Source of the DNA: Planctomycetota bacterium
Lineage (GTDB): Bacteria; Planctomycetota; UBA1135; UBA2386
DNA: 64,000 bases
Reading direction: 5' to 3'
NCBI GenBank assembly: GCA_031423015.1
Contig: JANPER010000150.1
Span: forward strand, 3,330 to 67,329
Shown here: positions 23,410 to 36,450 of the stretch, in pieces
How the letters are laid out: every line of letters starts with the position of its first letter
Position numbering within the stretch: the first letter of the stretch is position 1
Translations under genes and position numbers: made by a program
Notes under the pieces: generated by a model
Told to the model about the DNA's origin: nothing
The model's database searches: none
The model's input: only the letters and a program-made list of their open reading frames with translations

Positions 23410-24237
23410 CTACGGCGGAGTGAGGCGCACGATGAACTCGCGGATCTGCGTTAGCGCCGCCTCATCCTCCAACCAGTCGACGTGGCCGCGGCCGGGCAAC
23501 TCGATCAAGCGGGCGCGTGGGCCGAGCGCGGCGGCGAGGGTCCGCGCGGCCGCCACCGGCACGGCGTCGTCGAGCGTGCCGTGCACGAGCAACGTGTCCA
23601 CCCGGCTGTCGCGCGTTTGCTCCACCGCGTCGTACACGTCGGCGAACGACCACGGCGCCCACCATGCGTCCTGCGTCACTTGGATCTGGTCGTAGGCTGA
23701 CAGCAATACCAGCGACGCGGGCGGCGTGCCGCGCGCGGTCGCGAGGCCAGCGAGGCGAAGGTTGAGCGCGGTGCCGAGCGAGAACGAGACCAAGTGAATG
23801 CGCTGGGGCTCGGCGCCGTGCTTGGTTTGCAGGCGCGCGTAGACCTTCTCGCTATCGGCCGCGAACGCGGCGGCGCTCGGCGTGCCCAGAGACCCGTCGA
23901 AGCCGCGATACGCCCACACTGCGAGGCCGAGCCCCGATCCGGCGGCGAGTCGCTCCAGCAGGCTTTGCGCTCCCCGCAGCACGTCGCCGCCGTTGCCAGG
24001 CAGAAAGAGGAGCCACGCGCCCGGCTTGCCGGTCGGCTGGCGCACCAGGCCGCGCAGCGTCACGCCGGGCTCGACCTCGAACTCGTCGGCCACGAAACCG
24101 GGCCGCGCGGCGAGCTGGGCAAAATCCGCTGCCGCGAGCTGGGTCGGCTGGTAGCGGAACCGATGGCGATTCTTGGCAGCAATCACGGCGAGCGCGATCG
24201 CCGCTCCGAGCAGCACGGCGACGAGGATCTTGAGCAT
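23410..24237 (-). CDS. Membrane-anchored alpha/beta hydrolase
   Basis: ATG at 24237 (MLKILVAVLLGAAIALAVIAA, an N-terminal TM helix). The nucleophile elbow is HLVSFSLGT (SxSxG variant). Acid and His candidates are HGTLDDAVP and GRGHVDW. It is divergent from the NRPS gene. Confidence 0.7.
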   Translation of the reverse strand: MLKILVAVLLGAAIALAVIAAKNRHRFRYQPTQLAAADFAQLAARPGFVADEFEVEPGVTLRGLVRQPTGKPGAWLLFLPGNGGDVLRGAQSLLERLAAGSGLGLAVWAYRGFDGSLGTPSAAAFAADSEKVYARLQTKHGAEPQRIHLVSFSLGTALNLRLAGLATARGTPPASLVLLSAYDQIQVTQDAWWAPWSFADVYDAVEQTRDSRVDTLLVHGTLDDAVPVAAARTLAAALGPRARLIELPGRGHVDWLEDEAALTQIREFIVRLTPP

Positions 24238-24310
24238 CCGAGCCGACTCTACGTCGCCGGTCAGCCGGTGAAACAACCGCGGTCGCGTTCTCGTTTGCCT
24301 CGCCCGGGTG

Positions 24311-24331
24311 GCTGTCGCGAATTGCGACAGC
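24311..24331. promoter_or_regulatory. Candidate operator: 8-bp inverted repeat GCTGTCGC-gaatt-GCGACAGC in the divergent hydrolase/NRPS intergenic region
   Basis: Read directly from the DNA. It lies within the 223-bp divergent region 24238-24460. A TAGAAT -10-like hexamer sits at 24457-24462. Confidence 0.3.
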
Positions 24332-35200: not shown

Positions 35201-35743
35201 AGCCCAGAGATGCCGACGCGCAGCCGGCTCGAACGCATGCGTCTGCATGCGCGGCGACTGGTGGCGCAGGGCCCGAGCTATGCCTTCGAGAAGCTCAAGG
35301 CGCGCGTGGTGAGCAGGGAACTCTGGCAGCTGCGTCGCTTGGTGTTGAAGCCGCTGTCGAAGCTGTTCCCGTACCACTTCCGCAGCGAATCGATGGTGTT
35401 CTCGTGGATCGACGCGTTCACCCGCTACGAGCCCAAACCGTGGAACGGGCGGGCGCACTTGTTCCGCGCGCGGTTGGACGACGCCATCGAGTGGAGCGGG
35501 ATCAAGCTGGAGAACGACCTCGGCTGGCAACACCTGGTGCAGGAGTTGGCGGTGGCGGAGGTGACCGGCGACCACAACTCGATGTGCGAGGAGCCGCACG
35601 TTCGCGTGCTCGCGGATCGGGTGCGCGCGTGTCTCGACGAGGCGAACCAGCGCATGACCAAGAAGACGCCGCCGCCCGCGCCGCCGCAGCACGGCACACG
35701 CGCCCCGGTCGCACCTGGGGTGCCGACCGGAGCCCGCGCTTGA
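29276..35743 (+). CDS. Type I polyketide synthase, KS-AT-KR-DH-CP-TE
   Basis: It starts 6 nt after the NRPS stop.
- KS: DIAIVGMACRVPGA, active-site Cys in VQTACSTSLVAVH (Cys codon 29846-29848), EAHGTGTQVGDPIE and NIGHLDTAAG.
- AT: FMFPGGGAQY and GHSLGEYTAA.
- KR: YLITGGLGGIGLA ... DYIAANAF.
- DH, downstream of KR: LDEHRIKGGRALVPGTGY.
- Carrier: FFQLGGQSLVAV (Ser codon 34670-34672).
- TE: GGYSGGGTAAFEMA. Confidence 0.92.
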   Translation: MAEHHAGDGSAAADAAATDIAIVGMACRVPGANNARELWANVRGKVESIRRYTDDELRAAGVEEALLANPNYVRAGGSLDAMEMFDAGYFGFGPRDAAIMDPQHRHFLECCVEALEDAGLPPARFKGAIGLFAGCGMGAYFAYNILTQPDLLENVGLFLLRHTGNDKDFLATRASYCLNLRGPSVSVQTACSTSLVAVHLACQSLLAMECDMALAGGVTIEQPHRHGYLFKENEVLSPDGHCRAFAAESKGTVLTSGLGVVAVRRLADALRDGDPIHAVIKATAVNNDGSGKVGYLAPSVDGHSAVVAEALALSGIDPETITLFEAHGTGTQVGDPIEIAALTQAYQAQSKKTSYCAISSLKTNIGHLDTAAGVAGLIKVASALTHKELPPSLHFDQPNPIIDFATSPFYVNTECTAWPRGATPRRAGLSSLGVGGTNAHAIVEEAPAAKTTALAEPWQLLLFSGKSQRSAEGNVERLRQHLQAQPTLNLADVAFTLESGREAHVQRRAYAVRDAAHAVEVLQSKDAKVLASGAAQEREPSVVFMFPGGGAQYVGMGRDLYARYPVYRQAIDQCLDVLRPLLPEDLRPLLFAAPGEGDAAERIQGPLALPVLFATEYALAQLWMSWGIEPAAMTGHSLGEYTAACLAGVMSLPDALALVLLRSRLLTTVPTGAVLSVPLPESEVRPLLGVELSLAAVNGPELCAVSGPEHAVAALEAVLAARDVEGRRLKISVAAHSAMLDPILDEFRAGVRKMKLQAPKRRFISNLTGTWAEASEVTSPEYWVRHLRHTVRFADGMATLMADKHRVFLEVGPGTTMCTLARMQRAKAATHEVIACLRHPQEPADDVQFLLTALGRVWCAGKNPDWSMLRGKAPRRRLSLPTYAFDHQRYFIEPGKRALAGLNTDLSLTRIGDVRDWFHRPSWHPSALPPGGVAASTRFVLFLDEDGPGEALAEKLGTRGHQVVRVMRGPSFQSVGKQRYVLNPAERSDYDALLEELARIEFVPEHFVHLWLARGKASHESAAKALETSEVVGFYALLSLAQALAQQDPDGKLRLTVVTEGAQRVFDEPLPHPERAMVLGPVQTIPRELSQVSARWVDVQIPVQRWKRRFDPRPATARTLVEQLAAELVATVDEQIVALRPLGRFVQEIETVAIPPVSQPLPVRAGGAYLITGGLGGIGLACARWLAGQAKVGIALLSRTGLPPRAEWQGYRGNSADDAVALAVRAVEELEAAGAKVVIVRGDVGDPAHTVRAVAEARAALGPIRGVLHGAGVIADALIAQKRPESAARVLSPKVRGTLNLEAALADEPLDFFVAFSSTSTVLGLPGQIDYIAANAFLDAFAQSRQRADGPHFLALGWGVWAEVGMAVQAARQGVPVDARDSGHPWLGRIVCDTPQMTRYEARYVADELWMLDEHRIKGGRALVPGTGYLEIARAALHKGAPNTSLELSDLTFLAPLDVDDVGGVDVRVDLQRDRGTFELTVGARAEGETAWRECARGHLAFGTDVSPKPLDIEAIAARCNKSTKTFGAYAQETRQEKHLDFGPRWKVLRKVQLGVNEGLALLELGREYADDVANVPLHPALLDLGCHFGLPLIEGYEQQDALFVPLSFGRVRVFRPLPARVLSYVRLAKSSRAADDIVTFDVTFASEDGTVLVEIERFVVRRMHDRAGISARRPATVRDPAESADARNGGGDELLRETLRHGIRPPEGTDALGRVLAYRVGPTIMVSPLRLAALRQRVDRDTAPKVEGGNKFARPELESSFLAPRTAVEKQLAELWQEVLGVDRVGIADDFFQLGGQSLVAVRLLSKMKKLWAVDLPLATFFEAPTVEKLAAVVQAELGTDAESAAAAGKPVPRSSRRGWSTLVPIQPRGARVPFYCAAGQGGNAMNLRHLAVHLGEDQPFYGLQARGVDGRMQPHETVEAMAAEYIADIRRFQPHGPYLIGGYSGGGTAAFEMAQQLHAMGEEVAALVFLDSHSPEMPTRSRLERMRLHARRLVAQGPSYAFEKLKARVVSRELWQLRRLVLKPLSKLFPYHFRSESMVFSWIDAFTRYEPKPWNGRAHLFRARLDDAIEWSGIKLENDLGWQHLVQELAVAEVTGDHNSMCEEPHVRVLADRVRACLDEANQRMTKKTPPPAPPQHGTRAPVAPGVPTGARA

Positions 35744-36450
35744 TCGAGGACTGCCGCTGGGCCGAGCTGCTGTTTCCTGGCCTGCGGGTCGAGGTGGCGT
35801 GTGTGCGTGATGCGGAGGGCGCTGCCGCGGAGGCCGAGCTGGTCGCGGCCGAGCGGGCCCTGGTGCGCGATGCCGTGCCCGCCCGCGTGCGCGCCTTCGC
35901 GCTCGGCAGGCGCGCGGCGCACCGCGCGCTCACCCGGGCAAAGGCGCCGAGCGGGCCGATTCTGGCTGGGGCCAATCGCGCGCCGCGCTGGCCGGCTGGG
36001 TTCGTCGGCAGCATCGCCCACTGTGAAGGCATCGCGATCGCCGCGGTGGCTCGCGCCGACGCAGTGCAGGGTCTCGGCGTCGACGTCGAAGTAGCGCGTG
36101 GCCTAACGACCGACTTGTGGTCGCGCGTCCTCACGCCGCACGAGCGGGCCGCACTCGCCGCGCTGCCCGCGGCCGAACGTGCCGACGCAGCCCTGCGCGT
36201 GTTCTGTGCCAAGGAAGCGATCTACAAGGCTTGGTCGCTGCGCGGCCAACGGGTGATCGAGTTCCAAGACGTCGAGCTTGCGGCGTTGCCGACGGCGAAT
36301 GCAACGTCCGCGACTCAGGCGCACGTGGCGACTCCGCCGCGCGCCCGCGCCGACGTGCGCGTGGGTGGCGACGACGTCTACGTCTTCGCCGCCGCACACC
36401 TCGACTTCGGGGCGCGTGTTTGTGACCTCGATGCTCGACTTCGCCTGTAA
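35740..36450 (+). CDS. 4'-phosphopantetheinyl transferase (EntD/Sfp type)
   Basis: The reading frame is taken from ORF 34711..36450. The TTG at 35740 overlaps the PKS stop (TTGA); a later in-frame start is possible. Motifs are FVGSIAHCEG, GLGVDVE and FCAKEAIYKAW. Confidence 0.78.
   Translation: MIEDCRWAELLFPGLRVEVACVRDAEGAAAEAELVAAERALVRDAVPARVRAFALGRRAAHRALTRAKAPSGPILAGANRAPRWPAGFVGSIAHCEGIAIAAVARADAVQGLGVDVEVARGLTTDLWSRVLTPHERAALAALPAAERADAALRVFCAKEAIYKAWSLRGQRVIEFQDVELAALPTANATSATQAHVATPPRARADVRVGGDDVYVFAAAHLDFGARVCDLDARLRL

Follow-up and report, generated by a model that had tools for sequence, protein, structure and literature searches.

A conserved gene cluster of a polyketide synthase (PKS) and a nonribosomal peptide synthetase (NRPS) was noted in roseobacters by Martens et al. 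in 2007 (Microb Ecol 54:31), as described in PMC5014874, and its product had not been identified as of 2016 (PMC5014874). In that cluster the PKS, a GT2 glycosyltransferase, the NRPS and a phosphopantetheinyl transferase (PPTase) follow each other inside a Wzx/Wzy-type polysaccharide locus. Formylation of a starter unit is described for conglobatin and oxazolomycin, where CongA and OzmO, composed of a formyltransferase (F) domain, an adenylation (A) domain and a peptidyl carrier protein (PCP), activate glycine, formylate it on the carrier and pass it to the ketosynthase (KS) of a PKS (PMC4504003). In MtaG and MelG of myxothiazol and melithiazol, as well as in SolF of solanimycin, the A domain is specific for glycine and contains a flavin monooxygenase by which the glycine alpha-carbon is hydroxylated (PMC10204066). 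Barnesin and the 4-amidopentadienoate warhead of the rakicidins are examples of products in which an NRPS-PKS hybrid has converted an amino acid unit to a vinylogous acid. Here we analysed a 64,000-nucleotide stretch of a Planctomycetota genome (assembly GCA_031423015.1, contig JANPER010000150.1, positions 3,330 to 67,329), referred to as the window, in which four adjacent genes at 23410–36450 encode such a hybrid. Judged by domain content and homology, the locus adds a compact new member to a family of NRPS/PKS clusters that is known and widespread but chemically uncharacterised, and to which the conserved roseobacter cluster also belongs.

The four genes occupy ~13 kb of the window, which has a GC content of ~68%. 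A hydrolase gene on the minus strand is divergent from a plus strand string of NRPS, PKS and PPTase, and third-codon-position GC flagged the open reading frames (ORFs) at 24272–29269 (+), 29270–35743 (+) and 23410–24798 (−) as coding. In the sequence, 6 nt separate the stop codon of the NRPS (29269) from the start codon of the PKS (ATG, 29276), and the letters TTGA at 35740–35743 are common to the PKS stop and the TTG start of the PPTase. We read the locus as an operon-like unit of four genes, encoding a minimal assembly line from NRPS to PKS together with the enzyme that would activate it. The original prediction, made from the letters of the sequence, had proposed these four genes and their domain string, with a single amino acid module and a single ketide module ending in a thioesterase (TE), and Pfam recovered all of this at the same positions. 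The domain calls for both megasynthases held under HMM search with Pfam and NCBIfam, and E-values as strong as those obtained with Pfam over ORFs of 1602 and 2155 codons mean that the calls are not due to chance. Catalytic motifs are intact throughout the domains of the cluster. A scan of the divergent intergenic region between hydrolase and NRPS for promoters and terminators returned nothing exceeding chance.

By Pfam and NCBIfam the NRPS (24461–29269, +) is an initiation module made up of an F domain, a condensation-domain remnant, an A domain with an inserted luciferase-like monooxygenase (LLM) and a PCP. The ORF was as originally predicted, but its start was not upheld by the database copy, as the 100% identical protein P0001 (1596 aa) begins at the ATG at 24479 and not at 24461. 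The F domain (24506–25384, +) is of the long ArnA/Fmt type with both an N-terminal and a C-terminal subdomain (Pfam Formyl_trans_N 1e-16, Formyl_trans_C 1.4e-7). Its catalytic residues Asn105, His107 and Asp143 are invariant in an alignment of 26 homologues and its motif NFHDGPLPRYAG lies at 24773–24808. The best matches in the PDB were to the ArnA formyltransferase domain (1.8e-22) and to Fmt (9e-18). The initiation module of linear gramicidin synthetase, LgrA, likewise has an N-terminal formyltransferase fused to A-PCP and is the best overall PDB match to the NRPS (719 bits), chiefly via its A domains, but its F domain matches that of the window at only ~1e-4, against 1e-18 to 1e-22 for ArnA/Fmt. 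LgrA is not known to have a monooxygenase, activates valine and hands its product to a condensation domain. Between the F and A domains, a linker of ~240 aa (25460–26190, +) corresponds to the C-terminal lobe of a condensation domain and lacks the catalytic N-lobe with its HHxxxDG motif. This linker had no Pfam match of its own in the window NRPS, and the assignment was made by alignment to homologues, of which P0010 and P0025 match positions 187–456 of Pfam Condensation in the same region.

The A domain is split in two. Its N-terminal part (26219–26878, +), defined by Pfam and motif search, extends through motif A4 (SFDISVLEL at 26783, containing FDIS), its C-terminal part (28040–28891, +) runs from A5 (NMYGPTE at 28268) to A10, and the LLM (26963–28015, +) is inserted between A4 and A5. 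Pfam AMP-binding (8.8e-90) was returned in two stretches split by Bac_luciferase (2.7e-48) and followed by AMP-binding_C (2.6e-12). The LLM scored 510.7 bits against TIGR04020, the MupA/Atu3671 LLM family, and thereby passed the cut-off of 244.45; its closest PDB match was PuwE (6ket, 372 bits), and the region is densely invariant across the homologue alignment. Ten-residue specificity codes were derived by hand from the core motifs. The code of the window A domain, DILQMVMVWK, is close to DILQLGLIWK, which we take to be a glycine code, and the pattern DILQ[LM][VIL]M[IV]WK was found in most of 81 family members, so that the code reads as glycine-like across the family. The module ends with a PCP (FFDLGGHSL, 28967–29158, +; Pfam PP-binding 9.2e-13). 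The position of the monooxygenase between A4 and A5 is shared with MtaG and MelG (PMC10204066). The MtaG, MelG and SolF modules, however, are chain-terminating or internal (PMC10204066), whereas the window module initiates, as it starts with an F domain and a condensation-lobe remnant, ends at its PCP and feeds a PKS. Neither a full upstream condensation domain nor a TE directly after the PCP, which make up the terminal context of MtaG and MelG, is found in the window NRPS.

The PKS (29276–35743, +) is a single module with the order KS, acyltransferase (AT), structural ketoreductase subdomain (psi-KR), ketoreductase (KR), dehydratase (DH), PCP-like carrier and TE, as assigned by Pfam, NCBIfam and PDB comparison. 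The KS (29327–30463, +; Pfam ketoacyl-synt 3.6e-68) has an intact Cys/His/His triad in QTACSTS, HGTGT and NIGH. For KS-AT the best PDB match was 8xju/8xjy at 781 bits, a PKS chain that shares the solved structure 8xjz with a chain of a peptide synthetase. These chains may be colibactin ClbI and ClbH, a guess from chain lengths only. The AT (30902–31840, +; Pfam Acyl_transf_1 8.6e-49) contains GHSLGE and the conserved Arg, and its specificity motif at 31472–31495 is a non-canonical VAAHS, neither HAFH nor YASH, where the family has a nearly invariant IAAHS consensus. The reductive part consists of the KR structural subdomain and the catalytic KR (32021–33364, +; Pfam Beta-ketacyl_N and KR, 9.7e-53, with the NCBIfam KR prefix), followed by the DH (33425–34279, +; Pfam PKS_DH_N/PS-DH 2.7e-22). 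The KR has TGGLGGIG and its catalytic Ser/Tyr/Asn region, with a family consensus VIDD like that of B-type KRs, and the DH retains its two conserved residues, a His in DEHR and an Asp in HPALLD. The carrier (34589–34777, +; Pfam PP-binding 1.4e-12) is of the NRPS type, with FFQLGGQSL; its GGQSL differs from the family consensus GGHSL. The type I TE (34907–35605, +; Pfam Thioesterase 2e-21) has GYSGG, an Asp in LVFLDS and GDH, and the carrier-TE pair comes closest to the termination didomains of NRPSs, for example 4zxh and EntF.

The remaining two genes flank the synthases. The PPTase (35740–36450, +), translationally coupled to the PKS, is of the Sfp type (Pfam 4PPT_N 1.5e-21 and ACPS 9.4e-16), and none of the NCBIfam equivalogs PptT, Npt, EntD and HetI reaches its cut-off on it. 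Among the sampled loci that contain a PKS, a PPTase adjoins the synthases in 31 of 59. The hydrolase (23410–24237, −; 275 aa) is a membrane-anchored alpha/beta hydrolase for which Pfam Abhydrolase_4 and Abhydrolase_6 both score just above cut-off; its translation has an N-terminal hydrophobic helix, the nucleophile motif SFSLG and, after it, Asp and His. Homologues with 60–69% identity occupy the same divergent position in loci L002, L003 and L004, and a 31%-identical homologue sits between PKS and NRPS in L010. No NCBIfam equivalog reached cut-off on any of the cluster proteins, and no product was found in the literature searched, in agreement with the original statement that no characterised cluster could be named. 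The best model, that of solanimycin SolG, scored 519 bits against a cut-off of 2200 and was rejected as a match, as it reflects generic A-PCP similarity only.

The closest homologues of the NRPS (63–76% identity) come from metagenomes and from Planctomycetota metagenome-assembled genomes (MAGs), among them GCA_041398565.1 (L002) with 72% identity. L002 and L003 contain the same set of minus strand hydrolase, NRPS, PKS and PPTase with an identical 4-nt overlap of PKS and PPTase, and L004 retains hydrolase and NRPS up to the end of its contig. Since the four genes recur in these relatives, with flanks that differ on both sides in L003 and downstream in L002, the unit is self-contained, as had been proposed. 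The trio of F-A(LLM)-PCP protein, PKS and PPTase is conserved in the related loci L002 and L003 and also in the roseobacter locus L066. This last locus, from Leisingera sp. JC11, has Pfam domain strings identical to those of the window NRPS and PKS, and its order of PKS, GT2, NRPS and PPTase is exactly that given in PMC5014874 and is found in Rhodobacteraceae generally. The window NRPS aligned over query residues ~14–1593 with homologues from Shimia, Leisingera, Paracoccus and other loci at 43–44% identity, and the window PKS over residues ~12–2120 with those of roseobacter-type loci at 42–46%. The two clusters are thus alike in full-length homologous synthases, in their F-A(LLM)-PCP and KS-AT-KR-DH-carrier-TE strings and in an adjacent Sfp-type PPTase. 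They differ in gene order, which is NRPS, PKS, PPTase in the window, and in the glycosyltransferase that lies between or beside the synthases in the roseobacter cluster (PMC5014874), in place of which the window has a divergent membrane-anchored hydrolase and unrelated flanks.

The original prediction had further regarded the cluster as unusual, and by implication rare, which the spread of the family does not support. Among 600 matching stretches listed when one genome was searched for each GTDB species, 592 were confirmed relatives. At least 592 species genomes from more than ten phyla have this NRPS architecture, the taxa including Planctomycetota, Myxococcota, Alpha-, Beta- and Gammaproteobacteria, Acidobacteriota, Gemmatimonadota, Chloroflexota, Actinomycetota, Bacteroidota and Cyanobacteria. 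The best 120 database matches to the NRPS (46–76% identity) all carry Formyl_trans_N, AMP-binding and Bac_luciferase, and nearly all span 97–100% of the query. A full-length PKS homologue adjoins the NRPS in 59 of 86 sampled loci, with 40–48% identity to the window PKS outside the clade of the window; another 14 loci have at least 7 kb of sequence on each side of the NRPS and no PKS partner. A neighbour-joining tree of 81 NRPSs was star-like with phyla intermixed, and the NRPS of the betaproteobacterium Hydrogenophaga (L033) nests inside Rhodobacterales, which points to horizontal transfer. As the Hydrogenophaga locus also has the roseobacter-style order with the PKS upstream, together with two GT2 copies, it represents an apparent recent transfer of the whole cluster. 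The tree was rejected as a means of separating functional subtypes, as loci with and without a PKS interleave in it. For the roseobacter-type family no product is reported in the full-text literature searched. Genome papers that followed, on Paracoccus in 2021 and on Phaeobacter in 2024, list such hybrids with no compound chemistry, and a JACS Au 2026 paper on hybrids of the polyunsaturated fatty acid (PUFA) type does not cover the combination of F-A(LLM)-PCP and PKS.

From the observed domains, motifs, conservation of the unit and family membership we infer which substrate is used, in what order the reactions take place and what is made. The Sfp-type PPTase would turn both carrier domains into their holo forms and glycine would be loaded by the NRPS onto its PCP, where the ArnA/Fmt-like N-terminal domain would N-formylate it from formyl-tetrahydrofolate and the embedded FMN-dependent LLM would hydroxylate its alpha-carbon. 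The starter is thus probably N-formyl (hydroxy)glycine. This would be accepted by the KS and condensed once with a malonyl unit, upon which the beta-keto group would become an (E)-enoyl thioester through KR and DH, and the NRPS-type TE, possibly with the membrane-tethered hydrolase, would release 4-formamido-(4-hydroxy)but-2-enoate or its lactone or ester. In the vinylogous amino acid systems, a single malonate extension precedes the action of KR and DH. The logic of the proposed mechanism follows CongA/OzmO, MtaG/MelG and the vinylogous amino acid systems. The barnesin and rakicidin units, though, lie in larger lipopeptides and their amino acid is neither N-formylated nor alpha-hydroxylated. 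We assign a probability of roughly 0.55 to this reading as a whole, in which a member of a widespread family forms a formyl-glycine starter, hydroxylates it at the alpha-carbon, extends it with one malonyl unit, processes it by KR and DH and releases it. The product is probably small, a glycine that has been formylated, oxidised and lengthened by two carbons. Domains and comparative genomics make 4-formamido-(4-hydroxy)but-2-enoate, or a lactone or ester thereof, the likely one; this agrees with the small N-acylated or oxidised amino acid with one enoyl unit that had been expected.

The direction from NRPS to PKS and the single extension are supported by the best-solved relative of the KS-AT, which was solved with a peptide synthetase chain, and by longer assembly lines of the same family. 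In L006 (14705–23642), L007 (14734–23605) and L034 (14749–24727) the NRPS is followed by a PKS that lacks a TE and then by C-A-PCP modules, in which C is a condensation domain. Within these loci the F-A(LLM)-PCP protein would be a starter module and the PKS a one-round extension module. In L040 (14693–18913) the NRPS feeds a C-A-PCP-oxidase module directly, with no PKS between. Such lines occur in some Polyangiaceae, Acidimicrobiales and Alphaproteobacteria, one module having a nitroreductase-type oxidase domain. By its domain context the cassette also primes larger, lipopeptide-like lines in some lineages. Several observations weigh against the proposed route. The glycine specificity of the A domain was taken from the hand-derived code. 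The F domain is far nearer to sugar and tRNA formyltransferases than to the LgrA F domain and, being ArnA/Fmt-like, could have a target that is not PCP-bound glycine. The AT motif VAAHS, being neither HAFH nor YASH, makes the extender unit uncertain, as standard rules are not predictive for it. The position of the KR before the DH makes iteration possible, and N-formyl alpha-hydroxyglycine is a labile carbinolamide that might fragment. Finally, no glycan genes, such as accompany the family elsewhere, were found in the window by tblastn with GT2 and other glycan representatives or by Pfam analysis of flanking genes.

This last point bears on where the acyl group ends up. Outside the window the family lies for the most part inside loci for polysaccharide biosynthesis. 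A rhamnosyltransferase-like GT2 gene adjoins the synthase pair in 32 of the 59 PKS-containing loci, and genes for Wzx flippase, Wzy-like proteins, Wzz, GT4 and WecG are often near, a polysaccharide setting found throughout the Proteobacteria as well as in some Myxococcota and Phycisphaerae. Loci with the NRPS and no PKS have hexapeptide sugar N-acyltransferases of the NeuD/PglB/VioB family in Chamaesiphon, Aulosira, Acidobacteria and Methylomirabilota (L042 6346–7703, which passes an NCBIfam cut-off; family members also in L046 at 9–1271, L023 at 7764–8465 and 15306–17195, L017 at 14515–15201 and L086 at 14554–15225). Other neighbours of the PKS-less NRPS are a DegT sugar aminotransferase in Aulosira, chain-length determinants and, in Sandaracinus, polysaccharide export and dTDP-rhamnose genes. 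This setting suggests that the carrier-bound acyl group may often end on an amino sugar or a polysaccharide, which for the window locus is a hypothesis. The TE, the membrane-tethered hydrolase or both might then move the acyl chain onto a sugar, glycan or lipid, and the cluster would be a machine that decorates cell-surface glycans. That the F domain is nearest to ArnA, a sugar-nucleotide formyltransferase, fits such a role. However, glycan genes are absent from the 64-kb window and from the 10 kb around the cluster in L002 and L003, the TE is an ordinary NRPS-type one and co-localisation is no proof of a common pathway, so that we regard this destination as unlikely for the window locus. We are equally doubtful of the broader form of the idea, in which the F-A(monooxygenase)-PCP cassette, with or without a PKS, may be a cross-phylum machine that installs an N-formyl-alpha-hydroxyglycine-derived, possibly vinylogous acyl group on amino sugars or surface polysaccharides.

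The number of extensions and the fate of the starter were weighed in the same manner. Were the PKS to iterate, a longer polyenoyl chain on formyl-glycine, amino-lipid-like or pigment-like, would be made instead of a C4 unit. The lone module does terminate in a TE, and KR (residues 1167–1363) before a PS-DH-type DH (residues 1384–1668) is the order typical of iterative PUFA- and enediyne-type PKSs; the NCBIfam PfaA model also gave a partial match (362 bits, cut-off 1010). Modular and hybrid KS-ATs nevertheless score far above this (8xju 781 bits, CurL and DEBS 560–600 bits, NCBIfam PKS_plus_SDR 1049 bits), there is only one carrier and no tandem array, no ER (enoylreductase) domain is present, the PPTase is a separate gene and not fused, and the TE-less PKS of L006, L007 and L034 passes its chain to C-A-PCP like an ordinary one-round module, which leaves iteration quite improbable. 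Slightly less credence was given to cleavage of the carbinolamide after alpha-hydroxylation, by which formamide would be lost and a glyoxylyl thioester extended to 4-oxobut-2-enoate (fumaraldehydate), unless formamide or glyoxylate were itself the real output. Cleavage does follow in MtaG and MelG, which have the same combination of a Gly-specific A domain and a monooxygenase at A4–A5 (PMC10204066). Those modules are terminal and not initiating, a dedicated and strictly conserved formyltransferase domain would be wasted, and N-acyl hemiaminals can persist, as solanimycin B, spergualin and skyllamycin retain alpha-hydroxyglycine (PMC10204066). By far the least probable outcome is cyclisation of the formyl-glycine starter, giving a 5-substituted oxazole like those of conglobatin, oxazolomycin and phthoxazolin. 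The loading logic, F-A(Gly)-PCP into a KS, is alike (PMC4504003); in the window the PCP and the F domain with its catalytic Asn, His and Asp are present, and glycine is predicted from the code. CongA and OzmO, on the other hand, have no embedded monooxygenase in the loading module, work with the cyclodehydratases CongE and OzmP (SGGKDS), lead to an oxazole and belong to multi-module lines (PMC4504003), whereas the window has an embedded LLM, no cyclodehydratase, a single KR/DH module and an F domain of the long ArnA/Fmt type. Moreover, KR and DH would eliminate the ketone on which ring closure depends. As no CongE/OzmP-type PP-loop enzyme was found, with SGGxDS absent from all six frames of the window and no such gene among the conserved neighbours, the oxazole route was rejected.

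The original prediction had held that the flanking genes give no clue to function. This stood for the window itself, in which the downstream genes (Uma2, LysR, NHL protein and sulfatase) are all unrelated to the cluster, but did not extend to the comparative context, where glycan loci and the role as a starter for longer lines do give clues. The flanks of L003 are unlike those of the window on both sides, and those of L002 differ downstream only. Upstream, 13002–20666 of the window is syntenic with 1–8797 of L002, the block comprising a 3-hydroxyacyl-CoA dehydrogenase, acyl-CoA dehydrogenases, an S49 peptidase, two T2SSE ATPases and an Fe/Mn superoxide dismutase (SOD). Together with the 72% identity of the NRPS, this synteny places the window in a planctomycete related to that of L002. 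In L002 an IS110 transposase lies between the T2SSE genes and the SOD gene, and none is found at that site in the window. Directly 3' of the PPTase, a Uma2-family putative endonuclease is encoded at 36518–37147 (+; Pfam 3.1e-18), and in the unrelated locus L085 a Uma2 gene lies ~1.5 kb past the homologous cluster; this may be a coincidence or a footprint of mobility. Two further ORFs, at 22021–23376 (−; 451 aa) and 39634–40953 (−; 439 aa), have coding-like third-position GC or a coupled position and no Pfam match, the latter overlapping the start of the sulfatase gene (40950–42404, −) by 4 nt. A very long plus strand ORF at 40665–45092 (1427 aa if counted from a TTG at 40809) runs over the same well-supported sulfatase gene, both with high third-position GC, and its 5' part is probably not real coding sequence.

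Taken by itself, the biosynthetic cluster of the window is ordinary, an orphan whose family is already recognised. As its four genes lie within 13 kb, with a PPTase of their own and no glycan genes, it offers a convenient minimal construct for product discovery. For the family, the analysis extends the synthase pair far beyond the roseobacters and adds a proposed starter, the priming of longer lines and a polysaccharide setting to the cluster noted in 2007. The scientific interest of the locus would rise if the acyl group were indeed transferred to glycans. The family would then provide a glycan decoration made by an assembly line, which has not been described so far, and the four-gene planctomycete version would be its minimal portable form.

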